From positions 23,066,001 through 23,130,000 of the forward strand of contig CM119371.1 of NCBI GenBank assembly GCA_051294905.1: DNA of 64,000 nucleotides, given 5' to 3'. Position 1 is the stretch's first letter. Each line of letters starts with the position of its first letter. Positions 2,323 to 21,724 of this stretch are shown piece by piece. The DNA comes from Botryllus schlosseri (Eukaryota). The notes under the pieces were generated by a model. The model had not been told where the DNA came from. It made no database searches and saw nothing but the letters and a program-made list of their open reading frames with translations. A program made the translations under genes and the position numbers.

Positions 2323-2619
2323 TGACTGTCGCTATCCATGACGCGAGAATGTCTCGTGATTTTATTGATTAACTGAATATACGTTACGTTATAAACTAGT
2401 TTGATGATTTGCGGACCCCATGAGGATGTGTATGGGACCCCCAGTGGTTAGCGGACCCCGGTTGAGAACCACTTTAGTAGTCCAACTCCCATTGCTTGCC
2501 CATGCTCTTATTTAATAGTATACAAGATCAGTGCGGTTCAAGGCTTCAACAAGCTGCTTGTGCTTCGGTTATCATGTCGCTTCGCACTGGGTGAAATATA
2601 GGTCGTGTAATATTTTACA

Positions 2620-3600
2620 GTTCCATGCTCACTATAGCATATCCCAATATATAGCAATCGATGCGTGTAGTTATATCATACGAGATGCTGTACGAAATGT
2701 TCGAATACCATCGAATAGTGTTGGTAAAGTCTGCATTGCGCTTTATACAATGCGGACATACTTTCAGTACGATAAGTTGCCATGAATCCCATCAAACTTG
2801 GATTGCTGATGTATGCGCAATGGGCAGTGTACCATCTGACGATCTGATTAGTAACATCACATGGGAGCGAATGTACCACTCACTGACTTCGCCATGGAAG
2901 ACGCTAGTATCATGGAAATTCGGGAATGCAATTTTCACTGCCCGCGCCGACCGATAGTGAAATCGACAATGAAAACGGATCGACAGCGGATACTCAGTAC
3001 GTTTTACTTTGCATATTACGTGCATAGACATAATGTTTTTTATCGAGATGTTATGACAGTTGGCTAGCAAGGGTTATGATCGGAATACTTTTATTTTAAA
3101 GCTCGACCAGGGACGCATCGCCAGCCGAATGCGAGAGAGCCTACACTACACGGGAAACACGCAGGTTTGGGCACGTAGTCGACCGCAGAACGGTCCTACA
3201 TATACACGGTAATCATTAAATACATCTTGCGTTTAGTTGGTACCCGCAGATCACAGGGTTACCGGACGCGAGCGACCGGGCCGAAGAAGAGTCGTGAGCA
3301 TTTACTATACGCCTATATTCATACTGGCAGAGACTATCATATTCATACCCATACATTTGCAGCGCTTCACATGAATACGAACCCCCGCCCAGCAATCTGG
3401 TCCCATTGCCGTAGCGGCGGAGCTCGGTGAGGATGGTACGCCGTATTGGAACATATAATTGCCGCAAATAGCAAATGGTCATCTATTTACTTTCAGACGT
3501 GGATTAATACTACCGTTACCGGGTGGAACAAGTCGACGGCACTTCCGGACTGAAAATAATCATTCACCGATCCCCTAAGGCGACCCCACGATGAACTGAC
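2620..3600 (+). pseudogene. Degenerate spliced RING-finger-like gene, copy A of YR-element cargo
   Basis: FIQCGHTFSTISCHESHQTWIADVCAMG (RING-like CxH..C..C), then EHLLYAYIHTGRDYH and a GT..AG intron at 3436-3496. Homologous to 12900-14110. Confidence 0.55.
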
Positions 3601-3685
3601 GACCTGCTATTCCGCATTCTTTATTCGTTACTGTTATTCCATATTACACCTATTGACTTAATAGCGACTATTGTACGATAGCACA

Positions 3686-5915
3686 AAGGGATGATGACCA
3701 ACAAACTCAATTCGGGTCGCGGGCCGCATTCAGACCTTCAAACGTCTCGCGGGCCGGATCAGTAAAACGTGTTTCAACACACATAAAAATGAAGTTGCTG
3801 GTTCATTGCATGCACAACAGTTTACTGAGTAAACATGCTCACTTTACGGGGATAAGCTACCCCTCGAACGGCAAGAGTTCCAAAAATTATTTGTTTTTTA
3901 TATTTGCTCTGTTTGATGTCATATTCCCTGCACCTAAACCTTCTGATGATCGGATAAGTGTGTTCTGGCGACGGACAGACAAACCGACGAACATGTGGGG
4001 ATCATGCACTTTCGGATCAAAGTCACTACAGCCATCGTATCAAAGTCACTACAGCCATACGCAGAAAATTACTTTAAAACCGAAAGTACGCGAGCCAGGT
4101 TCTAGTCAGGGTTCGTCAAATCAAATTTTACCATGACGCGCTTTGGATGCTCGACATTCGCCAAAAGCCGATCTATTCGATACGCACTCGTTATCGTAGT
4201 ATAAAGGAAAGTGGTTGAAGAACTGTCACCTACGTTATGGTATTTACCATGCCACTTGGCTCCAAATTGCAGGAATATGTCTTAATCAAATTTAAAGGTA
4301 TGTGTATATGACTGATTTTTCACGTCGAATCGTAGATTAGCCTTTCAAATCAATGTTACAATCCTGTCCATGCAAAATGAAGTGGGGACCATTGAAACAA
4401 TATTTTTGGAAAATGTACACATATTGACAATTGGACGCAGAACCAAAACTGACCGAAAATGAAATTGAACGAAAGGTAAGGGGGTGTGACCAACCAGATT
4501 TGTAGGTCGAACTAACGGAAGGAATTATATCCTCTTCAAGTACACACGGTTCGTCTTCTCTCACTGCGATCCCGTATTGCTGCTGAATCTTGACACTTGA
4601 CATCTCTTTTTCTTAATGATCGCCTCAATATTTGGATGCAAATCCCGACTAGCAGCACACTTAACGATGTCATTGTGATGTTTATTGGTTAGCCGTGAGC
4701 GTTGAACTGTATTATTGATGTTCATTACGGAGAACACTTGTTCGCAAAGATATGTAGTTCCGAACATGGATAAAACCTTGGCGGCCATCGCTGTTAATCT
4801 GGGGACTGCGGTGTAAGATACTGATAAAACTTGTTCAAGTCCACTGACGCAAATTTATCCTTCATTTTGGTATCACACTGCAGGTCAATTAGCTCGAGTT
4901 GAATTTCAGCAGCCATTTCAGATGGCTCGACTGTAAATGGCGATCGGAACACGGCAAATGTATTCTTGAGCTCATGGAAGACCTGAAACCTCCGTTAATA
5001 CTCTTGCAGTAAATCTGCTATGTTTGCTTTGTAGTTTTCCGCGCCTGTACAGTATGGTGCATTCGATCTCACAGCCGTTAGACATGGGAAATGTTCCAGG
5101 TCACCTCGGGAAAGCTGAGCCTCCCACAGTGACAATTTCATTTTGAACGCGCGTATGTCGTCTTCATACTGGGTGACAACCTTATCGCGACCCTGCAATT
5201 TACTGTTAAGCGTGTTCAAGTGTTGCGTAATGTCAACCATAAAAGCAAGATCATGAACCCATTCTTTGGACTGAAGTTCGTCTACTGGGCGACCTTTATG
5301 CTCCATGAACTCTTCAATTTCGCCTCGCAGCTCAAAGAACCGTTTCAGTACTGCGCCTCTACTTAACCACCGCACATCAGTGTTATATGGTAGACCAGCA
5401 TGGACGTCATTATCGCTGATGAATGCATCGAACTGGCGATGATTTAATCCGCGCGATCTGATGAAATTAACGGTTTTCACAACCACACTCAAAACATGGT
5501 CCATCTTTAGAGTTTTGCAGCATAATGCTTCCTGGTGCAAAATACAGTGAAAGCAATATACATCTTGTCCGCCGTTCGCGATACGTACCTTCTCCCGAAA
5601 TTTCGTGGCCACGCCAGTCTTCTTTCCGACCATCGACTGCGCACCATCAGTAGCGAGGCTGATGGCACGGGACCAGTCTACCCCCGCCCTGTCAAGCGCT
5701 CCAACGAGTGAGATGAAAATATCACTCGCTGTTGTAGTGTCGGTCATGGGCACGAATTGAAGCAATTCCTTAGTAATTTGTAACGACGGATCAACACCCC
5801 TAATAAATATGGCCAGTTGGGCAACATCTGTTACATCGATGCTCTCATCGATCGCCACTGAAAATGCGATAAATGATTTAATTCTGTCTCTTAATTCGCT
5901 CTCCCGATCATTTGC
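3686..5915 (-). mobile_element. 5'-truncated hAT (Charlie/SPIN/GTF2IRD2-like) transposon with transposase pseudogene
   Basis: ORF 4995..5858 has AIDESIDVTDVAQLAIFIRG, LATDGA, HCILHQEALC, VRWLSRG and DLAFMVDIT. After a TAA it reads IQLELIDLQCD, then frameshifts into the C-terminal dimerisation motif MFGTTYLCEQVFSVMN..RSRLT (4561..4788). A degenerate Charlie-like end (aaactcaa..cgcgggccgc) lies near 3690-3770. Confidence 0.92.
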
Positions 5916-6299
5916 TAGTGTATAGTCCTAATTGCATATTTGATAATTCTCCTATCAAATGTCATAACCTTCCGAGCCATCAAATTAGTCGTTGGGATTA
6001 CTAGCATTATGGTTGCATTGCATGCAAATAAGGTTAGGAACCAATGCATTAACATGTTCACCTTTACAACATGGACGCGGTCGCGAAACATGCGTATTGA
6101 TGCTAGTTGTCATTTGACGAAAACGTGCTATATTATAAGTAGCATATCATTATTGACGTATATTTCGCCATGCTCAATATTGGTTTATGATCTCTGATAT
6201 GCATCTACGACTACGAGATAAGTGTATTGGTTGGATGCGTTCAGTGTTATGCCATTATGGCCTCGAATGTAAACGGGCTTTCAGTCACACGACGGTAGG

Positions 6300-6700
6300 C
6301 CAATCCACCATCGTACCCTTCGACGAGGGGTATGGCGTTACACTAAGGGGGGCCAACCTGAGGCCGCATAAGGAAATCTATGCAACCGTGCACACGTATT
6401 TCAATTAGTATGTGTTGGCGGCCGGTGACATGGACATTCGATTGGCGAATTCAATCCCAAATTTTTATATTTTGATCAATCTCAAACTTCCATTCGCAAT
6501 GCGCGTGATTCAACACGACTTCATGTTTCGATGTTAATATAGCAGCGCCCTTCCGAGATGAGCAGCACGGTGCCGATGTAAACCGCACCCGATGATGTGG
6601 CCCATACAGAAATACCAACTTGGCAATGGGTCACCATCACGAAAGAAAGTTTTGCAGTAATAAGCCTACCACGATTTGTGGATAGGTCGTATTTTCTGTC
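6300..6700 (-). pseudogene. Orphan ORF remnant, copy A of YR-element cargo
   Basis: Manual translation ILTSKHEVVLNHAHCEWKFEID..SNVHV aligns with MLRLKHGFVLNDTNILTFEFEE..INVHV at 18365..18559(-). Confidence 0.45.
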
Positions 6701-6960
6701 AATAATTAAGTAAGAAACGCGTCAACCAGGAAATTCAATCAGTAAATTCAAGGCACACGCCTTCTACAAGAATATCTCCGGGACGGATCTCGCAATCTTC
6801 GCTATCGGATATCCGTTCATCGTCCACGTCTGTAAGTAACATTAATATTCCGTGACTTGTTAACAACAAAAGTCATTGGTCCAAGACGTACCAGAGCATA
6901 TGACGATAACAGTTATGGCAAGCGACCTGACGTTGGTTGACCACAATATCGTCCACGCAA

Positions 6961-7108
6961 TCGGCTTCCCACGACGTACTGTGAAATTATCATGTGTTGT
7001 ACACGGGACAACATCATCTCCATAACTTGTAAGTTCGGCTTCCCACGACGTACTGTGAAATTATCATGTGTTGTACACGGGACAAAATCATCTCCATAAC
7101 TTGTAAGT
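6961..7108. repeat. 74-bp direct tandem duplication (2 copies)
   Basis: tcggcttcccacgacgtactgtgaaattatc...cataacttgtaagt occurs at 6961 and 7035 with one mismatch seen. Confidence 0.95.
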
Positions 7109-7189
7109 TAAAGTAGCACTCGCCTTCGACGACGTATCCATGTGGTACATACGCCGTGAGTACAAAGTAAAAACTGATGCTTTTTACGA

Positions 7190-7270
7190 ATTAACGTACA
7201 TTGCATGGCTAGTGGGACACTGCATAATAATGATATGCAGTGTCCCACTAGCCATGCAATGTACGTTAAT
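7190..7270. repeat. Perfect 37-bp inverted repeat with 7-nt loop
   Basis: attaacgtacattgcatggctagtgggacactgcata - ataatga - tatgcagtgtcccactagccatgcaatgtacgttaat. Confidence 0.95.
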
Positions 7271-9447
7271 ACGTATATATAATATAATATGCAGTGCATA
7301 TACTGACATTTTACATACCTGCAAGTGTCGCTTTCCAAATTGTCGCGTTCTTCTATTGGACCAGACTCGTCACTGGTCGTCCCTGGAATCAACATTATCA
7401 CAATTAGCATAAACGTAACATGATTTGGAACAACACGCAGATTTTAACGCCGTAATGCTATTCCACGTGTAATAAACGAACTAGTAACTTACCCGTGAGC
7501 TGTGTCCGAGTATGTTTCGGGCTCGTTATCGGTACACAGCAGTTCCCGAAACTCGGGTATAACATATGGGTGCATGGGTGCTCACTGTCATTATATGTAT
7601 TTTCTCTTATTTCCGGTATGCAACGTTCGTCCATGATGGAGATCAAAGCGCAATGAACGCGATGCGAATTGGCAATTTAACAATTATCACTCACCATAAT
7701 TGACCTAATCTTAACCATAGTGACGTATGAATGGGTCGGCAAAATGCTGGCACAGGTCAACGGTATTGGCTGTACTGCAATTGGTAGCTGTCTGAAGCCA
7801 GGTCATCTACATGGACTAACAGCCGGCTGTGTCTTTCGTTATATGCCGTTCGGTAGTGAGTCGTGGATATCGCAGCTTTTTCTATAGTAGGGGTCACAAA
7901 CACGCGTCCTGCGATGTCATAGTTTGCGGCCCGCTACGTGATTTAAGATTGCTGAAGAACGCTTAGTAAAACATTTACAAATGCTGACATCGATTTCATT
8001 GTCAACATATTGTTGTGGTTGTGGGCATAGCGCCTTGATGTGTAATGGCCCACCACTGCCAATACCAAGACGCTTAGAAAACGACGTCGGGCTTCCGGAA
8101 ATACTAAGCTTCGCTAGGATACCGTTTTCCAGAAGATAAAGTGTATACCTCGTCCCAATATATAGACTCTTTAATCCGAGGGATGGAAATCGACGGCAGT
8201 GGAGGGAGAATGATGCGACCGTCTAGGTTAACTTATACTAGGATGTGTTAACGGTCGTCAAAATGCTAATATAATTTGCAAATTGACTCCCTAATTTAGG
8301 AGACGTTTGAATTTTTCTCGAAATTTTCCTCGTGCTAGGCACGGTTCAACTCGAATTGACTTTCTATTTTAATATATTAGTGTCCATTTTTATCTGAGGT
8401 TCACAATATAGATCCGAAAAGCATAGGAGAAATATGCTCCCTATGAAGAAATACCAATTTTGATCCTGTGCTCATCATAACTAAGGAGATTTGTTTCCAG
8501 TATGCATACGTTTTGACCGAATCCAATATCGTTCCACTACACTGACAACTCTTACGGGTAACAGAGAAATAACATCATGTACCAAATGCGACTAGTTACA
8601 ATTGTCTCACCCAACGACGCATCGTATAATTCATTAACATCAATTTCCGAATATTCCCCCTCCTCCCCTTCATGAATTTGTCAGTGAATATGATCACACG
8701 GGATGATGAAGTATATTATTTGATAGTGATACGGGGAACAATACTTATAGTAATGGCGAACTTCATTAATGACTATGAAAAGTTGTCGCGCTTGGCCCAA
8801 CTATAAACCGTATCCCTGTTAATATACAGAACATGAATGTTCACGATTTCCGTGCGCATATTATGCTAATGTGAGTCAAACGTCAGTGAAATAGCAATGG
8901 ACAATCGACATGATCAGTTTAACGTGGGTGTTTGGCGATAGTGCATTCTGATTTTGTTTTTGCCGCCCTTGTATATTAGGATATCACGTATAACTTCCGA
9001 TATGCGGGCATTGTTGGGGTGGGGGATATGCAATAATTTACTCGGATCGCACTATGTGTAAAAGCAATCACGTGGTAAGCAATCGGCGCGATCTACTTCC
9101 GTTTGAGATAATATGCAGCGGATGTTCGATTTGTCATCATCGCAAGGTGTCTAACCGTATGATCATTAAATGGCCCTACCCACGTATGCATAACGTAAGC
9201 CACGTGCGTTGACAGGTCATTCAACTAATTTGATTTTATACGCACTGAGTCACCTAAATGTCGAGCACACACTACTAAGGACAACATTTACCGACGTCAA
9301 TCTTAGTTTATTACACAACGAACAAATATATGCTTAAACATGTCCGCTCAATTCATAAACAACAAGAGCAGCCAACACCCAACGCCGAATTATAGATCAC
9401 CAATCCGACTCCACCCTAAGAGACAACAATAGACATCGTATAACATA

Positions 9448-12400
9448 TCACTTGTGGCAGTCCCGTGGCATGTTCAATTTAATGCGCATTGGACCATGAT
9501 CTAGTCGAAATCGCGTAGCGGCTTGTAGCAATTACTCCTGTCTCCTCAATAACAATAAAAGGTCCGGATGACTACAAACACATAGAAACTGAGCTTCGCT
9601 CATCGTTTTAGGGCTCCTGCTGGATATTATTTGCCTTCACACTGCACGGCGCGCGGCATCAATCGCTATGCGGTCTGAAAATGCAGCGTATAGTTACGGA
9701 GTCGTAGGCTATCCCTCGGTAAAGCCGCTTTACCAATGGGTACGGCATATTCGGACGGGGTGTTGCTGTTATTGGAATCCGCTGAGGTAATAGGTCTGAA
9801 GGTCCTGCCTTGGTCGGAGCGTGGTTGCGCGTCTACTATGCGTTGGGGCGTCATGCGGACCGGCGACTGGGCGCTCGCGGATGCAACGTGAGCTTCAGTA
9901 CGCGTAACGTGGTCGCTGGCATTCGTATGTGGACCGCCGTCAGATGGTAACTCTTCGTGTGGTTCTTCATTCACTGAATCCCGTATTATTCCGTATATGA
10001 ATATGGCACCTTCGTAATTCATTAATGAACAATACGTTATATGTAACTTATCACATGCGAGCGTACGTCATTGCGCACGTTACGATATAACTTACTTCCA
10101 TCCGATATACCTGTTTCGATGAGTTTTAATTATTATGGAGTATGGAATCATGCCGTGATTAGCTATAATACTACAGTAACGACTGTGTTCGATTGCAGTA
10201 GCGACTGAGTGATGTTTTGCTGCCGGTTCGATTATGAGGTAGGCTACCTTTATTCAGTTGGCAAATACCTCATTATATTGCGGTGTTATGCTCGCCCACC
10301 AGTATCAGCCAAGAAATCATAGCGATATTTCATGTAGTCTTGACAGCGAATTCAGACTGACTGTATACTTGGTAATTCAGGCTTGACTCTATAGGCATAA
10401 TAATGAAGGTCAACAAATGTTGCGTTTATGGCTGTAAGTCCGGATATTTGACGACTGGGAAAAAGGTGTCGTCGTTTCGCTTTGCATTTTATGATTTGGA
10501 GTTCCTCTGCCTCGATCCTTGATTCACACGAGTGACAAATGATACTCTGAATAACTTTGGTGCTTTACTAAACCTACCGAAATATCTCGAAAATGTCCGA
10601 AAAATTTTACTGGAAGAGCTATAAAATCAAATATATTAGAAGACTGATGGTCATGAACATATTCCGTATTCATACGCAATGATTCGTTTCGCGCTCCTAC
10701 TCCGGTACACATCCGCGCAAGCTTATAGAATTTTTACAGAAAGTTTTCCCTCAATGTCAGCCGCGAGTCGGTACAGCAAAGGGAGCGTTGATGCGGTTGA
10801 AGTCCGTGGAGTTATGAAAGAAAAGGGCGAGATCTCCACTGGTATAATGTTGATGGTAGATGAGTTGTATGTACTCACAAAAAGGGGCCATATCACGCTG
10901 GTAAATATTATGCAGCAGATGAAAGCAGTCATTTATATAAAAGCATTGTTGGAATGATGGTCCATGGTCTTCAAAAATCAACAACCATCTTGGTGAAGGC
11001 ACCGCCAGAGACCGAGATTGCGGAGGAATTGCTGGATGGTATTGCTACTCTGAATGAAAATGGATTTTTCGTTTGAGGAATGTATCAGATAATCATCCAT
11101 CCGCTGTGAAAGTCTTGGAAATGATGCGAGAAAAGTGCCCTAGCAATGATAAGTTCTCTTTTCATTATACAGAAAGAAGGTTCTCGCAGTACAGGCAAAT
11201 GAGTGGGGACGGTTTCTGGTCGGTTTAACAAAAGTTACCAATTCTGAAAAGATAACACTGCTCCGTTCCATGCTGATAATTGACATTAATTTCTGAGAGC
11301 ATGATGTTCGTGTTCAAAGCTCAGCTCATTTGGATCGTTTTAAACACTATTAAAGATGTGGCAATTGAAATTACAGGAACCCTTTTATCTCCTAACAGTG
11401 AGTTGGTGTTCTATTATGTTACTGTCTGTTGTTTGTTGACAAAAGGTTCTCAAAAATGGAATTCCAAGGCATGTTGCGAGTTAATTTTTGATGAATCCGG
11501 TGACACAAGTTCGGGCTATTTCGACTCTCTCGTGTGAGATTGCTTGCTCCATCAGAACCACTCGCCAAGTTTCTTGCATCAAGTTTTTCAATCCTGGATA
11601 GTTCTGATACAATCATCAGCTTTCATCCTCGAGTCTCAGTGAAAGGAGCTCCGAATATGTTTTGCAACGATTTGGGGGCCCTAAGGCTTTGCCTGTTCTA
11701 GTCATCAAGATCGAGCTTTCAAATTGGCGAGCCTGAATCATTGTGAACATATATTACACTAACAATCAGAAGCTGGTTAATGCCTCTGTGAGAAAAAATG
11801 ATGTGGACTTGAAAAACGGCATTTGAGCTAGTCGTAACCTGCATACTTCATTGATGCATTTGATTCACGGATGTGAGGTCGAAGCTTTATGACCATAAGC
11901 CTGGTACTCGTTGTTGCGAGTAGTTACTTATGAAAACGATATCAATTTATTCTCTACATGCTATATTTGATTTTACCATGTATTAAAATACTTAACATTA
12001 GCAAGTTTGTTCCTTACCGCTATACAGATTATTTCTGTGATTAGTGGATATACTGGATAACTGTATCTTCGACGCTGTCAATTGTAACTTTGGGAAAGTA
12101 CTAATTTCGTCTGTTATACGGCTTTGCTAGACTTATCTGAAGGGAGGCATCTGGTTGCGAGAAGCGGAATCGTAAGCAATCGCTGATGTCTGTTTTGCGA
12201 ACGTCGGCCTCCCCGATATTGCAAGTGAAATGCGCCATATAAGGCCGTAAGTTATCGTAGGCCCCGGTCCATTACATAGCGCCACGTCAGCGTATATGGT
12301 TTTGTGTCGAGTAGCCAACGCAATATTCAACAGTTGTCGGCCTGCAGCTGCTTCCGGTGAGACACTCGTTGTCCGCGACAGTCCATCGTAATGCCAAGCC

Positions 12401-12450
12401 TACTATTTGCCATGACAGTACAATACTTTGATGCATCCGCGGTTGCACCA
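9448..12450 (-). pseudogene. Tyrosine recombinase gene 3' part, copy A (interrupted at about 10125-12250)
   Basis: 12250-12450 reads HYDGLSRTTSVSPEAAAGRQLLNIALATRHKTIYADVALC (copy B: HYDGMLRNASVAAGAAIGRKLFNRALATQHETIYADAARC). It resumes near 10120 as IETGISDG|gtaagt. Downstream exons SAQSPVRMTPQRIVDAQPR and HPDL..GPMRIKLNMPRDCHK* match copy B. Confidence 0.75.
10403..11830 (+). mobile_element. THAP-domain / P-element-like transposase remnant, heavily deleted and frameshifted
   Basis: MKVNKCCVYGCKSGY..KKVSSFRF (THAP start) at 10403. MIRFALLLRYTSAQAYR..GSVDAV..KGEISTGIMLMVDELY contains the first catalytic Asp region of THAP9/P-type transposases. Confidence 0.75.
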
Positions 12451-12899
12451 ATTAGTCACGTGTTCCGAGTCACAAGTCCGTTTGTGAACTCGACTCAGTT
12501 AGCTGTTATAACCCAGTCAGTCCGATTTCGAGTAATTTTACGGAAGGTTGGGCCCAAGGCCAATTTACGAGTTTCAGTCTCGAATCATCAACGGGTCGTG
12601 ATGTTTTATCGTCATGGAGTTGGCTTGTGACATAATAGCTGATCCTCAACCGCATAATAGCTTTGGAGAGTGATGTGCTAGTGAAGTCTCATGAGAGTTC
12701 CGTTTGGCGTAGTTTTTGAGTGAAGTCTTAAGTTCTCAAACTGATTAAAGTATATGGCTGTTGCATAAATTGTCGAATACTTAAAAATCTAACATGCATT
12801 TACGGGCCGCGCGCTTGATACATCTGAGCTACACATGTGCAATGTGCATGTGCACTAGTGCAGACATTATCTATACATTGTCGCGATCCACCATTTGAT

Positions 12900-14110
12900 G
12901 AATCGCGTGTGGCGGGTCAATACCAAACCAACGTGTTGGGATTGTTATTATGACAAGTTCCAGACTGGCGCGACAGTTTAAGAACTTTGTTCCAATGGTA
13001 ATAAGACTGGCGATATTAGTGATATTGTACCACCGCTGTTTCAGCAAGTGCAGCGAACGTCGTCACAACTTGGACGGCGATATTTGCGCAACGTGCGACT
13101 CGACGAACAGGATATGGGGACGGCTCGCCTATGTCAATAATACATACCCACAAACCAAGATTAGATGCTAACCATCTGTATTTTGGGTGGATAACCCCTT
13201 ACCGGTATGTTGATGTTCGCGATTGGTATACGGGAGACGCACATACTTCATCAGGCTAATGCCAGCCACCCCCGTCTGGTACGATAGCGGTATGTCGTCA
13301 CAATGGTCAAGCCACTGCCAGTTCCGGCGTTGATTACTAATGTTCAAGTGGAGCGACTGTGCCATTTACGGAAAAAATATGGACGAATACGCTGGTATTC
13401 CGGAAATAGCGAGATTGGTGGGTTGCTCAAGGAAATACGTGAGCTCGCCGACGAATGTGTGGACCGTGGCCGCGACTACGACCGACATACTGATAAGGAG
13501 TAAGTGCTGCTTTGTATAGTACTGGTATAGACACGCCAACGGTGTGTGTTGAGTTGGTATAATATGCAGTTATCATGGATAATGATAGGCATAATGTTAT
13601 ATTACAGCTGGATGACGGACGACTCCTCAGTCGATATGGGGTTGACTATCACTAATGTAGAAAAACGCAGGTTTGTACACGCAGTATATCGCTTAACTGT
13701 CCTGTATAGTGTATATATACACGGTATTATATAACAAAAACGGTGGTGCGTTTAGTTTGGACTCACAGCTTTCAACGGGGGGAGCGGGTGATGCCGATCT
13801 TGCCGAATACGAATCGTGGGCATTTATTATACGATATCATTTATAATGGCGTCGACTATCACCAATACATTGCAGCGTTGAACCCGTGTCCGACGAAGGT
13901 GAGTCCCATGGCGTGGAGGATGATATCGGCGAGGATGGTACGTAGTATTGGAGCATACAATTATATATAGTCAGGACCAACTGGTTACGTTACCTCATGT
14001 TCCTTTCAGACGATACTGGCTACGGTTACTGGGTCGAGCAACTTGAGTGTCCGACCCGGATTGTACTGGTCATTCACCGGTGCAAGAAGCAAGACCAGCA
14101 TATCATTGAA
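12900..14110 (+). pseudogene. Degenerate spliced RING-finger-like gene, copy B of YR-element cargo
   Basis: KPTCWDCYY, then LYHRCFSKCSERRHNLDGDICATCDS, RELADECVDRGRDYDRHT and GHLLYDIIYNGVDYHQ. The intron at 13938-14009 is in the same position as in copy A. The last exon reads DTGYGYWVEQLECPTRIVLVIHR. Confidence 0.55.
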
Positions 14111-15562
14111 TGAGCTGTATTAATAAATACTACATTCAATGATGACTTTTCGATAGTACAAACGGGTCCTGAACACACGGCAAGCTGTCGTCAGTCAATG
14201 CGAGCATAATTATTATGAATGGTTTTCCTTACGTAGCTGCGCACTTGAACAGAAACATTCGCAATCAATAGCAATATTAACAGTCTGTATACGCCCATGG
14301 TGATGTTGATTATGTGCAAGAGCGCTAGGTGTAACCACGTCTATTACGTCATATATTATTGCCGGTATCATCAACAACTGTATTGACTTGAAGATTGGTC
14401 TACTTAACTACTAGTTGGTAGTGCAGTGATAGGCGAGTCCCTTTCACTATGTGTATTTAGACGACGTAACCGATACATATACTGGCTATTCGTGACTTAA
14501 AGGGGCACTGCACTCAAAAAATGATGTGGTCTCAAATTGAAGGGCAAAACGAAATAAAATTTTTGGCCGCAGCCGTTTTCATCAGAACGCCACCGTAATG
14601 GAGCTGCAATTTATTGAAATTTCCAGAAACACATCCGGCTGCAGCTGTCGTGGCTCCGGGTCATTTCTTAACCCGTTACATGGAACGATGACTTCATCGT
14701 CGCACTTGCTCGACGCGATTAGGCAGTCACGCAGAGGACGAACTTTAGATAGTGGCCAGCCAATGTTACGAAGCAAATATGTCTTACACGCCAAGGTGGT
14801 GTAGATACGCCGTTCCACGGAGGATGTTCAGTCAGGAGATTTTTCTCTTAATCGGGGCTAGTGTACTCTATTTCTTGAGGGCAGGAATAGATCATGTCCT
14901 ATTCTTATGTTATGTATAAAACATTACCATCACCAATCAGTGTGCCCCTGAACATTTCAAAATTCAGAGCGGTCATAATTGGTTTCGCATTCAGGTTGGA
15001 GAATCATAAGATGAGGGTTTGACGGTATCGTAAAATTATGGCTTGGGGATTAGTAAGATTACAATATAATGAATATGTTTTAGGGTCAGCTGCGGAGTTG
15101 TGGGTTCAGGTTAGGTTTGCGTCCCGTTGGATTTCGGTTAAGGATGATGAATTTTCCTACAATACCAGAACCCTACACCAATTTAGAATGTCATGAATTT
15201 TGTAATGTTCATGGGGAACCCTGACTGGTGGTATTCATGTTGTGGATAAGAAATTACTCTTATCCCGAAAATCGACTACAGCATAAAGTGCTTTTCAACC
15301 TGTATGACGGTTCGTACTTGTTCAAATGAAAAGAATTTCAAACAAATAGTCTACCAATGTTCAAACAAATAGTCAACCAATGTTAAGTGTGAAAGAAAAA
15401 CTGTATTTCCGGAGTTGAGCTAGAAAGTTGGCTGTTTATCAGTCGATCGACAACGGAGTCTGATTTACCATTTTCCAGGATTCTACATGATCCACTATTC
15501 TATTTCTGAAAATTTTGAATAAGTGTCCTCCTGTCCCGAATCCAAAATACGATAACGATGAC

Positions 15563-15740
15563 CAGTGAATTCGGCCTCACGAACTCGGCCGTCAGGGAAC
15601 TCGGCCCTCGGGAAATTTTGTATTACAGCGAATCATTAAACTAATAATATTATTATCAAGTGATTGGTGAAAATATTGATAAACCCGAGGGAAGAGTTTG
15701 TGAGGCCGAATTCACCGAGGGCCGAGTTCACCGGCAACCA
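15563..15740. repeat. Small inverted-repeat element built from GAA(C/T)TCGGCC units, nested in the Kolobok
   Basis: gaattcggcctcacgaactcggccgtcagggaactcggccctcggg ... cccgagg..gtgaggccgaattcaccgagggccgagttcacc. Confidence 0.6.
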
Positions 15741-16248
15741 CGATAACCCTACCTTGTAGGTAACAGTGGGCGATGCCAGTGTTGATTTGAATGCAAAGTA
15801 TTGGAATTTCGGCACACATTCATATTGCGATGACATAACACGTCGATTTAGTGGAAAAGTGATATTGTTCATTGGTTCGCCCTTTAAGCTTCGAAAGAAA
15901 TCACTGCACGATACCCCCAGAAAAAGCAACGAATACCTTGAGAACAGCGGAAGTGCGATATATGTGATTTTTTACTGCAGTGATTTTAGTATTTGATTAA
16001 TCAACAATACGATACGCTGAATGTGAAATAATGACGCTCTGTACCTACAGGAAGCCCTACAAATACAAAAGTGATAAGCTTTTCTTTTCGTGTAATAAAT
16101 TCCAGCTGGCTGGTGCGAATTAAATTGTCAAAAAAATGCGAATAGAGCTGAAAATGGTTGAAAAGTACTGGTCTACGTTATTGTCTTGCTCTACCCAGAG
16201 TCTTCGTAATAGTATATAGAATATACATTGATATTATTAAAAGCTGCA

Positions 16249-16850
16249 ATGACATCGACACGTTGTGCATTTATATCGTGTGAAGTCAAAAGGAATGACG
16301 CATCGCATACTCTTCATAAAATTCCTTCTGAAATTGCACTAAGACGACAGTGCCATATCCATCAATAAATCACCAGTTTGCTGTGTGACATGTCTGCAAA
16401 GGTAACTGAATACTGATATTATTTGAAACTTCTTTTGCCTGACTAACCATTTCTCAGGACTGAAAAAAAAGTTGGTGTCTCTGGGTGAGAAGAAAGGTAT
16501 GGAAGACTTGCTACTATGGACAAGAAGCATCACTAAACACTTTGGGTGGTGCTGTCAGCATTGTGGTCAAGATAGCAGTGTAAGTCTACATATCAACTAT
16601 GTCTGACATCACATATTAGGAACTTTTTATATACCAATATGCAATCGCAGGTGCTAAAAAGAAGATGGATATCTCTTCTGCATCACATCACCGGACAGTT
16701 GACGGGGAGACATATTCCTGCAGCCATGGCACTTTGACTGGGGATCAGTGCCTAAGAACTAGATGGTTGCAATGTGGATCTCCCAGTTTCATATCATTGA
16801 AATCTTTGATAGAAAAAAAAGTTTGACTTTAAAAACGTTGTTCTAGAACA
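16249..16850 (+). pseudogene. Kolobok transposase remnant with THAP-like start and two introns
   Basis: MTSTRCAFISCEVKRNDASHTLHKIP; NHQFAV*HVCK|intron|GLKKKLVSLGEKKGMEDLLLWTRSITKHFGWCCQHCGQDSS|intron|VLKRRWISLLHHITG. This resembles the DxWH..KKL..W..SI.NH..WC..KW.S..H pattern of Kolobok transposases. Confidence 0.75.
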
Positions 16851-16939
16851 TCTAGAACAATACATCTCTATCGTACATCTTCGAGTTGTATGGCATGTGC
16901 AGAGCTGCGTAGCTTACTAGATCAATTTCATTCTTCCAC

Positions 16940-17490
16940 TGCCCGACTGCCCAGTTGTAATACCCTACCCTATATAGTCCTCGGATGTTTCTTTTACTAT
17001 TGAGTTGAATTTTTAATAAATGCCGAGTAAGCCATTGGTGGAATATAAGAATAGCCATTGGTGGAATATAAGAATGCAAACAGTTCCCGTTCGCTGATCG
17101 ACTTATATAGCAGAGCCGCAGTGTTATCAATCACAGTTCGTTAGAAAGCCTTCTGCCAGGACCATGTGGTTGATTGTTATAATTCCAGTTTTTTTTCTGT
17201 TCACAGAGCAACTGCACCATTCATTGTCAAGTGTCCGAAGTTGACTCTGGTTTTCTGACGATTTCTTAGACCAATACAATGAGATTGAAAAATTGCATCC
17301 AAGAAACGCGGGTGCAAATACTTGAGTTTGTGCTTCTAGAGTTGCAACAAGACCGGCGAATTCCTCCTCTGAATATTGTGGCTCAAATTGACACGGCAGG
17401 CTCTCACAAAATATCGTGATATCATTGAAATCTTCTACATCTGTATCTTCATCAGAAGTTCATTCATCAGCAAGATCTTCTTCCATACCA
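16940..17490 (-). pseudogene. KolX-like second gene remnant of Kolobok
   Basis: Minus-strand fragments LPCQFEPQYSEEE, LRTLDNEWCSC, GFLTNC and TLRLCY resemble the PYxFEP / WCxC / GFxxxC motifs of KolX. Confidence 0.55.
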
Positions 17491-18364
17491 TTAATGTCAA
17501 AGGAATTGCATGAATGAACGAACTGATGGAGACAGAAGATTCGTTAGTGAAACTGAGAACAACAATGTTACGATAAAAATTTCCACAACAATGTTTGAAC
17601 TTTGATGAGAATGAAACAATGATATTTTCGTGTTGACCATCTATACATCTGTGTCTTGAACAAGTAAACTGGACCGTATCAAAATAGTTGCTATGCCATG
17701 GGTAAACGATGCAAAATATCCTGTGTCTGTCTCTTGCACAAGACCACTACTCAGAAGGTTGTGCACTGTGCAGTCATTAATAAATCTTGAAAATGACAGC
17801 TGTATCAATATAGCTTTGCATCAATATACAACTGTAATGGCATCTCAGTATCAGTCAACTGGCAAATACTATAGAGTCATGACAAGCTCCAGACACAAAT
17901 CCTCCTGACTTCTAACACCGTACGTTGAGCGCCGCCTTGGTGTGCAAGGCATGATTCCTTCACAACATCGACTGACAACTATCTAAAGTTCGTCCTCTGC
18001 GTGACTGCCTAATCGCGCCGAGCAAGTGCGACGATGAAGTCATCGTTGCATGTAACGGGTTAAGAAATGACCCGGAGCCGCGACAGCTGCAGCCGGATGT
18101 GTTTCTGGAAATTTCAATAAATTGCAGCTACATTACGGTGGCGTTCTGAAGAATACGGCTGCGGCCAAAATTTTTTTTCGTTTTGCCCTTCAATTTGAGA
18201 CCACATCATTTGTTGAGTGCAGTGCCCCTTTAACTATCGTTATTGTCTGATACGAATATCTCCTTTCGATTTAAAACACAACAATTTTGTTGTGCACCAG
18301 AACGGATACACGCATGTATTTATTAGGAAGATAACCTGGTCGGCGTTGATATTGAACGTGAAGT

Positions 18365-18740
18365 TTATTTAGTGTTGGTTGTGTAACCGCACAGCGGTCG
18401 CATGAGCTGATTTTCTACATGTACATTGATTGGATACGAGTTATGCCTCTGTACTAGACATTTGAATAGATTATGTATAAAGTAGTAATTTGTTTCTTCA
18501 AATTCGAAAGTCAATATGTTAGTGTCGTTCAGCACAAAACCGTGCTTTAACCTCAACATAATTCTCTGGCAGACTATTGCTTCATGTATAACGCCTATGT
18601 CCGCTAGGCAGGTTTCAGCGTTTAATATGCGGTGCGTTGCAAATTCTTTAGATAACTATGCACAATATATACACCTGCAAGCGTCGATATCCTATCAATT
18701 CGCGACAACATATTGCAATGCTGTCTATATTTTCCCGGTT
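18365..18740 (-). pseudogene. Orphan ORF remnant, copy B of YR-element cargo
   Basis: ORF 18365..18559 and its upstream frame are homologous to 6300-6700. Confidence 0.45.
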
Positions 18741-18794
18741 GTATGACACCATGTAAAAAGAACGCTCAACAGTATGACAGTCTAATAGTCAGTG

Positions 18795-19390
18795 AATTAG
18801 GTGAGTCGCACGCCGTCTTCACTCCCATCTGCGGAACTGGCCTCGCAATCGCCGCTGCCGTATACAATATTATCGTCTGCATCTGTAAGTAACCTTAATA
18901 TTCCGGGCCTTGATAACAACAACATTCAATGGTACAAGGCCTACCAGTGCATACGATGATCTCAATGACGGCCAGCGTCGTAACGTCGGTGATCACCAAT
19001 TCATCCGTGTAGTTGGCTTCCGACGACGACCTGGAAAGTTGTCATATTTTGTATAAGATACGAACCTCATAATATTGGCATGTAAGTTATATTCTCACTC
19101 GTCATCGACAGCGCCTCCATGCTGTTCACACGCAGGAAGTAACAGGTTCAAACTGAATACGTTACGTCGTTGATTAATACCCCACACTGTATGGCGATTC
19201 AGCCGCGACATCTCATATCATTGTACACACCGGCGGATGTCCCAGTCAAGTCGTCTCTATCCGATCTTGTACTGGAGGAGGCACTGTTCGTCCCGGGCAG
19301 TAATAGTATTACTTATGTGGGTATGCATTCACCCTTATTCACCCATGTTAGAGGTCTCCGCGAAAGAACTTCAACGACGGTACATAATAC
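18795..19390 (-). pseudogene. Degenerate spliced orphan gene with acidic, SIM-like C-terminus, copy B of YR-element cargo
   Basis: LPGTNSASSSTRSDRDDL; SEANYTDELVITDVTTLAVIEIIVCTD|intron gtaggc..ttacag|ADDNIVYGSGDCE. Nucleotide similarity to 6810-7000 is clear. Confidence 0.5.
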
Positions 19391-19669
19391 CCGCCAATGA
19401 CAACCGTGATATAGGCGTGACGATATGTGATTCGCACAAGGTGCTTTGTTATACACGAAATAACAGAATGCTCATTCGCACCCTCATTGTCACGATGCCA
19501 TACAATATCCGCCACATATCGCACGTGACGCGACAACGAACTTATCTATTAGTAAGTAATAACGCCCATTGAATAAGCAAATAACGTGAACCAACACCCA
19601 CATCAACATCACCAAGCGACCTCCACCATTAATAGTCATGTACACATACCATGCCTCTCGACAAACCTA

Positions 19670-21330
19670 TTATCTGTGGCAGTCCCGCAACATTCTCAAT
19701 TTGCTGCGCATGGGGCCAGTAGCTAACCCACTTCGCGTAGCAGCATGTCGCAAGGACTCACTGAGCATGGGACCCGTTCGCCGCAAAAATAAGGACAGGT
19801 CCGGATGACGGCGAAGCCACAGGAACTGATGCTCGTTAATAGATATATAGGGCTCTTACTCGTTACTCGTTGCCTTTTGAATGCAAGGCGTGCGGCTGGA
19901 ATAGCGATGTTATCTGCAAATAGGTGGCATAGTGACAGATCCGTGTGCTATCCCGATAATTATATGCGTACCGTTGGGTGCCATATCATGGAAAGAGGAG
20001 TCTTGATGCGCGTAATCCGATGAGACTATCGCTGTCGGTGTCGTGACAGTATCGAAGCGTGGTCGCGCATCGACTATTAGTTGATGTTTCGCACGGGCTG
20101 ATGACTGGACGCTCCCGGACGTAGAGGGGGCGCCATTACGCGTGGGACTGCAGCTGGCAGTCGCGGATTTACCGTATTCCGTAGTTTCAGTCACTGCAAA
20201 GATTAGCATGCAATTTAGTCATCCATAACTTTATTATTTATGTGTGAACAATGCGCTCTATGTCACCTAGTACACGCGTACACGTAATGCGGTGAAGGCT
20301 TTACCGATGTTATTTACCTCCGTATGAGAGATCTGTTTCTATATCATCATGGGACGTTCCAGCGCACCTAGCGGCGTCTGCGTATATAGTTTCGTGCTGT
20401 GTGGCCAACGCACGATTAAACAGTTTCCTGCCGATAGCTGCACCCGCCGCGACGCTTGCATTCCGCAACATTCCATCGTAATGCACGTTGGCTACCCCGA
20501 TCGAATGAGACGAGGAAGCAGCCACGTCATCCTTTTCCCGAAGAGACAGACCGCTCGCCATAGTGGCCAGCATTTTTCGTAAATGCTGATAAGACACTCC
20601 TTGCATCCCGTGTCTTGTCAGATATGATTGGACACATTTCGAAAGATGACGTATGGGCTGACCGGTCGTAGAACGAAGAGCGGGCGCCTCAGCGGGGCTC
20701 ATGCATCCGTTGTGGCGAGCGCATAACTGGAACACAATGACAAGTACTTGGTAATGGTTCGTCACTGCTTAACACATTCCGTGAGCTAGCTCTGTAGTTA
20801 TGATGACATGACCAATCGACTATATAGATAGCATGCTCACCAATTTGAATCGTTCATAGCGGTCGTGCTCAAACGCAATCATACTACCGAGCGATTTGCT
20901 TTTTGTTTGGTTGACTTGTACGATTACGCGGTCCTGGTCGCTGATCAGCTTGCCGGGATTCATTAATTATTCGGCGGTGACCCGTCTGAAATGACACAGT
21001 CGTGTCCCGGTGGATGCTCCTACGTCAATTAGGAGTGCCGCCAAGCACGCGTGAAAACATTTGTGTTTGATTTGTTATTATTACTGCGCATTGTGCAGTG
21101 CACGGCGTTGAATTACCTTGTCGAACATTGATGCATGATGCAACACGAGATTCTCGGTGGCGCAAATTCTGAATTTATTCGATTAGTCTGAACGGAACCT
21201 TCTATGTTCCAAAAGACTTCATTGCTGGACGGACTCTATCGAGCGCAACCATATCGCGGAACGAATTTTAAACCATTTGGATATGTATTTCTATTGATAA
21301 GGTCGCGGCATGCGTCCATATTGTTCTTAC
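19670..21330 (-). pseudogene. Intron-containing tyrosine recombinase with C-terminal extension, copy B (one in-frame stop, later frameshift)
   Basis: LAALLIDVGASTGTR (box I Arg at about 21001), VIVQVNQTKS (Lys), a phase-0 intron at 20727-20840, then SYQHLRKMLAT..VAASSSHSIGVANVHYD (box II Arg, His, Tyr). Further exons at 19972-20193 and 19670-19913 are bounded by GT/AG. Stop at 20967-20969. The 5' end is uncertain. Confidence 0.8.
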
Positions 21331-21724
21331 TGCAATAACATGTGGATAATTAAAACCGCACCATTTTACGATCAAATTCTACTAGCTGATCGGGACCTAC
21401 GTAGGACGTAGGCCCCGGCCTGATATTAACCAGCGCGTTGTCGGCAATAAAACCCTAGGTGCGTAGCCAGAGAGTTTCTATTTTTTATTGCTAGAAATCC
21501 CGACCTTTTGAAATGCCAATTCACTGATTCGTACTATCGATGCTGCGTACTGCAAATTAGCTATAATCATTTGTATGCGAAATGGGTCATCGATATCTCA
21601 TGTGCACTATCGGCGGTGGTTTGATTTAGCGCGTCTACATAGGCCTGCTACCGTCCGCAGATACACTTTCGCCGAACAGAAAAAATCTCTTAGTGTAATA
21701 TTATTTGTGTTTATGTATCTTGTT

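Follow-up and report, generated by a model that had tools for sequence, protein, structure and literature searches.

A decayed head-to-tail repeat pair with a lineage-restricted, probably Crypton-like tyrosine recombinase in Botryllus schlosseri

We analysed a 64-kb stretch of the Botryllus schlosseri genome (C1:23066001-23130000, here called the window) in a 495.5-Mb assembly of 219 contigs, to which labels such as C1, C3 and C5 refer. The region under study is, in our judgement, probably a decayed head-to-tail pair of a repeat unit of ~5-6 kb, whose sole demonstrable gene encodes a lineage-restricted, intron-bearing and Crypton-like tyrosine recombinase (YR). The initial annotation of this region had described two copies of a four-gene, cargo-carrying mobile element, with a RING-like gene (+), an orphan (-), an acidic orphan (-) and a YR (-), pierced by three nested insertions.

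The two copies, unit A (about 2324-12396) and unit B (about 12827-21074), were compared directly. Without masking, blastn of A against B gave four plus/plus hits in collinear order at 65-75% identity, and tblastx recovered the same blocks, with similar scores in several frames and stops in all of them. For a more sensitive blastn we masked 3704-5917, 7237-9281, 10115-12267, 12397-12826 and 14501-18229, and obtained four same-strand collinear blocks at 61-70% identity: 2978-3569 with 13480-14079 (63%), 6739-7035 with 18789-19088 (70%), 7117-7177 with 19096-19156 (70%) and 9315-12394 with 19533-20484 (61%, 981 columns), the last spanning the removed 'P-like' element without interruption. The aligned share of masked A comes to ~1.97 kb of 3.66 kb, and 20 of 20 shuffled-B controls gave 0 hits. 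Because four masked blocks were recovered and the shuffles gave none, we conclude that the pair is real as a tandem, collinear, head-to-tail and diverged arrangement, as had been proposed. The unit ends, on the other hand, had to be revised, since the YR of A covers only 12268-12396 and the homology of B to other copies stops at 21064-21074, not at 21420. The left end of A is set at the start of a 94-97% identical copy on C3 (8.646 Mb). Unit A is the older, decayed copy and B looks younger; the YR lies on the minus strand in each.

When the whole 64 kb was searched by tblastn with the zinc-finger, core-binding and catalytic exons of three YR lineages, only 20313-21074 and 12268-12396 matched, which upholds the assignment of a minus-strand YR to both units; zinc-finger and core-binding exons occur nowhere in the window. 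The remnant in A (12268-12396, minus) consists of ~42 codons from the 3' end, with the HYDG tyrosine motif among them. Unit B retains an open catalytic exon 2 (20313-20726, minus) with the YQHLRK and SSSHS...HYDG motifs and 94% amino-acid identity to the C3 copy, an intron (20727-20840, minus, with GT at 20840 and AG at 20727) and a remnant of catalytic exon 1 (20841-21074, minus) with the GTRL.HFRR and TKSK motifs, one in-frame stop and its 5' side cut off. The YR of B lacks the first ~30 codons of the catalytic part. All catalytic motifs are kept in B and the Tyr motif alone in A, and both window YR copies are dead. A search with the B open reading frame (ORF) at 20310-20768 (minus) gave at least 50 genome matches on many contigs, with stops in 9 of the 50 listed. 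A decayed, YR-element-like family in an animal, as initially suggested, is borne out by these results.

Longer relatives of the window YR have four parts: two C2H2-like zinc fingers, a core-binding-type exon, catalytic exons with the order R...K...R...H...Y, and ~60 C-terminal residues. A 21-row paralogue alignment keeps GTRLSYFRR, NKS..QG, YQHLRK..AT and SSSHS..VA..HYDG, that is, the residue order R, K, R, H, Y, and the spacing from H to Y is 9. The same spacing of 9 is found in Xer-type enzymes. An AlphaFold model built from this alignment was weak, with a mean predicted local distance difference test (pLDDT) score of 51 and values below 40 over the C-terminal 100 residues, and our confidence in the fold is modest because of it. 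Foldseek returned ~40 rows of integrases, Cre, Flp, Xer, type IB topoisomerases and the protelomerase TelK (best E 0.017, probability 0.89-0.95), with the exception of two vitamin-D-receptor and two YopR rows. VIA-align gave Z scores of 5.5-7.9 to the YR/topoisomerase IB fold, with 84 of 376 chains at Z>=5 and 7-15% sequence identity, and 19 of 30 hits in the ESM Atlas were Phage_integrase clusters at 0.94, accompanied by protelomerase and NDC10_II clusters.

The coding sequence bears the marks of selection. Ratios of nonsynonymous to synonymous substitution rates (dN/dS) between lineages are 0.13-0.38 wherever dS could be computed, and in the other comparisons of the catalytic exons the proportion of nonsynonymous differences (pN) is 0.17-0.47 against saturated synonymous differences (pS) of 0.55-0.89. 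Six comparisons with L004:1500-1920, in which a wrong frame left 9-42 codons aligned, were set aside. The GT...AG intron of window B (20840/20727) sits at the same codon in three other lineages (L002, L004 and L036). The conserved intron positions described earlier could be followed only in the YR, where B agrees with these lineages; A has lost that part of the gene. Only 4 YR cluster representatives were found among 1.84 billion proteins, and a word-indexed protein search with a 271-amino-acid YR ORF, covering longer proteins only, gave none at E<=0.001. Since only 4 representatives exist, the family appears narrow and fast-evolving in the manner of transposon families; it is lineage-restricted and has no Pfam match. 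Taken together, the conserved motifs, the fold and feature searches and the substitution rates allow us to say with fair confidence that the protein is a real tyrosine recombinase under selection.

Two other reading frames came to light among these searches. Both C17 copies of the YR have the catalytic exon split by an insertion of ~840 bp that carries a 296-amino-acid BTB-BACK ORF (L007:2266-3153 at C17:2.233 Mb, and the same in L010; Pfam BACK, 1.5e-12). On C14, a 394-amino-acid open frame (C14:23661062-23661493; L044:1084-2268, minus) holds a DUF3504 domain at 45.5 bits, over the cut-off; it is a Crypton-derived gene or a CryptonA-type element, and hhalign indicates that it is unrelated to the window YR.

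The block named the acidic orphan proved to be informative about the YR itself. In A it is a remnant with in-frame stops (9436-9606, minus), and in B it is a C-terminal domain (19673-19855, minus) ending at a stop codon that is conserved across lineages. The block encodes a motif of ~60 residues (...MRSKLRMLRDCHR). In all lineages examined, tblastn places this motif downstream of the YR and on the YR strand, at 26-32% identity between distant lineages. The same terminal stop codon is used in A-type, B-type and C5-type copies, and 10 of the 11 genomic matches of the domain lie 0.4-2.9 kb downstream of a YR match. Pfam gave nothing near its cut-offs for the C-terminal ORF, and an ESM Atlas search with the domain gave no usable hit. 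Judged from position, strand and shared stop, the acidic orphan is the 3' part of the YR module, either its last exon or a tightly linked second ORF, and its description as a separate accessory gene is not sustained.

The remaining two of the four proposed genes were examined for any sign of coding. From 2324-3703, 5918-7236, 12827-14500 and 18230-19600 we scanned 105 ORFs of at least 35 amino acids, none of which reached a Pfam cut-off. The sole RING row, zf-C3HC4_3 (E 0.037; 14.3 bits against a cut-off of 27), fell at 14077-14190 on the minus strand, the wrong one for the gene described, and ~4 rows of this kind are expected by chance from 105 queries. The 'RING-like' region of A, block d' (2978-3569), has no coding support and aligns with 13480-14079 of B. 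There it corresponds to block d (13228-14500, resuming at 18230-18354 beyond a nested element), a repeat common to the C5, C1 and C3 copies at 79-94%. The only long ORF in the d region of any copy is a C5-type frame of 164 amino acids, matched by window 13249-13500. Over seven copy comparisons its dN/dS ranges from 0.41 to 3.4; two of these span the full length, at 92-93% identity, and give 0.87 and 0.91. Pfam gave nothing near cut-offs, and the near-unity ratios indicate that the d-ORF evolves neutrally. The 'orphan' block of A (6739-7177) aligns with 18789-19156 of B at 70% and has stops in every frame. Its homologue in B (18738-19584) is single-copy genome-wide at the sensitivity of our search, and is missing from the C3, C7 and C17 copies.

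Transcription was assessed in thin samples of four bulk RNA runs (1.0-1.9 billion letters each, ~6-13% of each run, with reads at least 96% alike). Depth was essentially nil over 2668-6002, 8004-10004, 12673-14006 and 18676-21343 (maximum 0.1, in two bins of one run), and no GT-AG joints fell on the putative genes in these thinly sampled runs. The one exception was run X11, whose depth rose to as much as 1.25 across 6670-7336, where the 'orphan' of A lies. These reads show mismatches, a deletion and a non-canonical TG..TA skip of 78 bp, and on this account we attribute them to transcripts of other copies. The other RNA reads lay mainly on the nested TTAA element described below; nearly all were less than 99% identical or fitted only in part, and they appear to derive from other copies of that element. 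We conclude that the 'RING-like' and 'orphan' regions of the unit either do not code or evolve neutrally.

These data bear directly on the proposal that the RING-like gene, orphan, acidic orphan and YR form an undescribed cargo-carrying YR element that integrated twice. Four blocks do align in the same order and orientation in A and B, and the scans support the earlier statement that the element has no reverse transcriptase (RT), DDE transposase of its own, DNA polymerase or capsid: RT, RNase H, methyltransferase, DDE, polymerase and capsid domains were all absent from the three sets of 16, 105 and 46 ORFs scanned, a scan with lower size limits of 35-80 amino acids, and the sole transposase-type domain hit in the window was that of a nested hAT. 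The proposal is nevertheless largely refuted, and we regard it as very improbable. Every ORF of the RING and orphan regions falls short of the Pfam cut-offs, the single RING row is on the opposite strand, A and B resemble each other equally in several stop-ridden frames, the d-ORF shows no constraint, the acidic orphan belongs to the YR module, RNA depth on the putative genes is essentially nil in the four thin samples (the X11 exception lacking a GT-AG junction), and subtelomeric and array copies of the YR occur without d (of the 30 d-ORF matches, none lies on C30, C9 or C49). With two of the genes lacking any coding signature and the other two forming one module, a unit of four genes with fixed accessory cargo does not hold.

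How the region was dispersed can be read from copies elsewhere. Pieces of the window recur in collinear order, at 80-94% identity, on C3 (8.759 Mb), on C7 (22.23 Mb) and twice on C17, namely 6646/7292-9281, 12775-13204, 13197-14500 (C17 only), 18230-18737 and 19585-21064. These loci lack 9282-12774, which contains the C-terminal and YR remnants of A, as well as 8308-8811 and 18738-19584, and all of them join 9281 directly to 12775. That breakpoint (12774/12775) is straddled by a 430-bp interspersed repeat (12397-12826; at least 1690 genomic candidates), which is complete in the window; most genomic copies of the repeat cover 12397-12810/12826. The C3, C7 and C17 copies retain only its last 36-52 bases, right after 9281. 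As the repeat is complete in the window and present only as a tail in the others, the 9281/12775 junction is a deletion scar; the converse, an insertion of 9282-12774 into a B-type unit, was rejected because the repeat straddles the breakpoint. Since these copies span the A/B junction and share the deletion, they derive from an already tandem, composite locus, and the tandem arrangement predates dispersal to C3, C7 and C17. On C12 (25.22-25.31 Mb) the 430-bp repeat recurs every ~9.3 kb, and its regular spacing there makes it part of a larger tandem unit.

The ends of these copies are uneven. On the YR side, the C3, C7 and C17 copies share an end to the base, which lies in a truncated hAT terminus, resembling a miniature inverted-repeat transposable element (MITE), that cuts the zinc-finger exon. 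The opposite ends differ, at the window equivalent of 7292 in C17 and of 6646 in C3 and C7. Dispersal of a unit with shared boundaries is thus contradicted by copies that straddle the A/B junction, share deletions and end differently; the pattern looks like segmental copying of a composite locus, unlike the transposition of a single unit.

A related possibility is that the YR mobilizes a larger composite of ~9-10 kb (segment a, c, d, e, C-terminal domain and YR), which would make the composite a Crypton-like element that includes non-YR DNA. An order of parts common to four unlinked loci (window, C3, C7 and C17 twice) at 80-94%, the end shared to the base in C3, C7 and C17, selection on the YR part during spread and the presence of a d-type repeat 4-10 kb from the YR in three diverged YR lineages would all suit such an element. 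But the shared end falls within a truncated, MITE-like terminus of hAT type, where the zinc-finger exon is cut, the opposite ends disagree, and the copies still carry pieces of unit A as well as the scar of a deletion within the 430-bp repeat. The histories of d and YR are also discordant. B d differs by 11-21% from the C5-type copies (79-94% identity to the C5, C1 and C3c copies, and 83-93% within the d-ORF), while the YRs of B and the C5-type copies share 64% DNA identity and are saturated at synonymous sites (pS 0.85); from this contrast it follows that d and YR do not co-evolve. In the C5-type copies, moreover, the YR module is inverted relative to d. We consider the composite element quite unlikely.

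The d-e repeat (13228-14500 plus 18230-18354, with counterparts in the C5, C1, C3, C7 and C17 copies) adjoins YRs of three lineages in either orientation. In three diverged lineages of the YR, d-ORF matches are located 4-10 kb away from it, and two others, at C3:5.13 and 4.78 Mb, are found without a YR. The d-e repeat may be an independent repeat, a target or a non-autonomous partner. An interval of C3 (4.7-9.1 Mb) holds ~15 of the 50 listed YR matches and 19 of the 30 d-ORF matches; internally duplicated blocks occur there, with identical scores at 6.65 Mb and 8.45 Mb.

We compared the family with known YR-mobilized elements. Cryptons are described as YR-encoding DNA transposons with hard-to-define boundaries and introns in the gene (Kojima & Jurka 2011, PMC3212892, which cites Goodwin et al. 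2003), and the window family resembles them in having the YR as sole enzyme, no RT, no long terminal repeats, retained introns and elusive ends. Active Cryptons of Chlamydomonas are reported to cause inversions and translocations through recombination with short target sites, and the inverted, rearranged mosaic seen here would fit the inversions in that account (PMC9977147). The passages of PMC3212892 that deal with domain structure give a C-terminal DNA-binding domain, GCR1_C, for fungal CryptonF and a second gene for some CryptonS, and describe animal groups A and I with no C-terminal domain after the YR. The window YR family differs from the animal groups by its C-terminal domain of ~60 amino acids, present in all lineages examined, and by its N-terminal zinc fingers. 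It differs from Cryptons also in showing no detectable sequence relation to DUF3504/CryptonA or any Pfam YR model and in lying partly in 17-19-kb arrays and next to telomeres. Ends of dispersed YR copies fall in other repeats or differ between copies. With no DUF3504 relation, a C-terminal domain present and neither termini nor a target motif, membership in the Cryptons falls short of established.

The other known types fit less well. DIRS, Ngaro and VIPER elements encode a YR and commonly occur as tandem or nested copies, but the scanned window ORFs contain no RT, RNase H or methyltransferase, and the lack of RT excludes a DIRS/Ngaro identity; an RNA intermediate is further disfavoured because introns are retained in the YR gene. 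Starships and Enterprise are giant fungal cargo elements mobilized by a YR (PMC10104507 and PMC8092012). The present family shares with them the association of a YR with large duplicated DNA, but has no DUF3435-type YR match and no evident cargo genes. Bacterial and phage integrases, Cre, Flp, XerA/XerH and type IB topoisomerases resemble the modelled protein in predicted catalytic fold and residue order (R, K, R, H, Y). In the usual HxxR box, however, the first His is out of register in this protein (YQHLRK), and the window YR gene is eukaryotic and intron-bearing.

The large duplicated DNA in question is a segment shared by C5:20750123-20783758 and C1:13155001-13186111, at least 33.6 kb long at 99.6% identity, which contains an open C5-type YR gene. 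One of its boundaries was located, inside a repeat with ~2500 candidates and ~13 kb from the YR; a third copy ends elsewhere. The 40 kb examined contain two further ORFs of at least 220 amino acids, only one of which (403 amino acids) is inside the duplication. We rejected the duplication as a giant mobile element on account of the located boundary, and a Starship-like cargo element was discarded because the accessory 'genes' are unsupported, the boundary is in a high-copy repeat and the YR lies 13 kb away.

Outside the window, YR copies are found at chromosome ends and in arrays. Contig C9 starts with (CCCTAA)n to about position 3745 (~3.7 kb), and ~3.4 kb from this run a YR gene (7099-9173, minus) has its zinc-finger, core-binding, catalytic and C-terminal parts all open. 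Telomere repeats also open C4, where a YR match follows at 25.2 kb, whereas the first 400 bases of C3 lack the repeat, so that (CCCTAA)n was found at two of the three contig starts tested. On C30 (212 kb), 11 YR matches are spaced at 16.7-18.9 kb. Head-to-tail arrays are as expected of circle integration by a recombinase; unequal exchange would yield them too. Among the titles and abstracts listed by literature searches, we found neither an animal case of subtelomeric YR arrays nor a tandem Crypton in Metazoa.

Such a distribution raises the possibility that the YR is a domesticated host gene family, multi-copy and arranged in subtelomeric arrays, and that the window holds two of its pseudogene copies, produced by tandem and segmental duplication without any transposition. 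Purifying selection is seen among all lineages, even between near-identical copies, and this reading would readily accommodate the fully open gene 3.4 kb from the C9 telomere repeats, the C4 match at 25 kb, the C30 array, the lack of termini, a C5/C1 duplication that ends inside another repeat and dispersed window-type copies that straddle the unit junction. It sits less easily with at least 50 matches on many contigs, many of them broken, and with a total of 4 cluster representatives among 1.8 billion proteins; the dN/dS signal, furthermore, is the same as would come from selection acting on a line of active copies. A host gene family is therefore an alternative that we take seriously but think unlikely.

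The reading of the region as a decayed pair of Crypton-like repeat units remains the one we favour, and several results weigh against it. Besides the weak structural model, no Pfam entry matched the YR exons at E<=1, the YR profile had 0 hits among PDB sequences at E<=10, hhalign of the YR alignment with the DUF3504 ORF of this genome gave a probability of 0.1%, and no fold search reached E 0.001 or Z 8. Among the YR copies compared there were no common termini, short direct repeats, target motif, empty sites or circular junctions. The YR part of the B-type copies is 90-94% identical as against 80-86% for the flanks, and window B and the C3 YR differ with a dN/dS of 0.19 (152 codons), from which it follows that the B-type YR was under selection during or after the spread. 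Passive copying of junk accounts for such selection less well than an active element or a host gene does. Finally, segment 'a' abuts d in inverted orientation in the C5, C3 and C7 copies, an arrangement for which inversions driven by the recombinase or by replication are plausible.

The following sequence of events would be consistent with a decayed Crypton-like pair. In a Crypton-like cycle, the YR would excise the element as a circle and integrate it site-specifically at a short matching site, and integration beside a resident copy, or else unequal exchange, could have produced the head-to-tail pair. Afterwards most of the YR would have disappeared from A and the 5' exons from B, no fewer than five later insertions would have accumulated in the pair, and a segment straddling A and B may have reached other chromosomes by ordinary segmental duplication.

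The insertions that interrupt the pair were characterized in turn. The hAT-type insertion (3702-5918, minus) contains a 310-amino-acid ORF (4995-5927) and a hAT dimerisation domain in 4561-4854 (Pfam Dimer_Tnp_hAT, PF05699, 22.8 bits against a cut-off of 21.4). Copies at 86-93% occur on six contig positions (C4 twice, C5, C6, C8 and C15), and neither terminal repeats nor an 8-bp duplication was seen at 3702/5918. The 3.7-kb element at 14501-18229, earlier named Kolobok, has a TTAA target duplication and perfect terminal inverted repeats of ~40 bp, and a C17 copy of the locus shows the empty TTAA site. TTAA is also the target of piggyBac-type elements. The 'P-like' insertion (10115-12267) is multi-copy; without it the A/B alignment would run on unbroken, and in the C5 copy it is the d region that is interrupted. 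All three insertions are thus real, being multi-copy or having an empty site, but the names Kolobok and P find no backing, as none of 46 ORFs gave Pfam support for a transposase family of the TTAA and 'P-like' elements.

Further insertions in A, beyond these three, are 7237-9281 and, inside it, 8308-8811. The former, segment 'a', has no counterpart in B and is present in the C3, C7 and C17 copies; the latter is a 504-bp stretch specific to the window. At the start of segment 'a' lies a fold-back palindrome (7220-7266) with 17-bp arms. It is contained in a small inverted triplication, relative to C5-type sequence, at window 7155-7416, which is the signature of a fold-back or template-switch rearrangement. 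Adjoining the left end of unit A is a 1.64-kb stretch (683-2322) with matches of 79-81% in either orientation on C17 (L024), where it forms an insertion in the d region. This stretch resembles an element of the foldback or long-inverted-repeat type.

A multi-gene, cargo-carrying YR element would have been without precedent in an animal, and the evidence does not support one here. The locus is instead a worked example of how a tandem relic, pierced by transposable elements, can mimic a multi-gene element. The YR family is a more interesting lead than the window itself: it was missed by sequence libraries, with no Pfam or PDB sequence hit, and it combines purifying selection, a conserved intron and a new C-terminal domain with a concentration near telomeres and in long arrays. 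We suggest tentatively, as a possibility that is some way from likely, that it represents an undescribed animal Crypton-like lineage in which arrays and the A-B pair grow by circle integration, the d-e repeat serves as a recombination site or non-autonomous partner, and the enzyme shapes subtelomeres and seeds inversions and segmental copies. If the family is active, it would offer an animal system for Crypton-type recombination and for the dynamics of subtelomeres and rearrangements driven by a recombinase.

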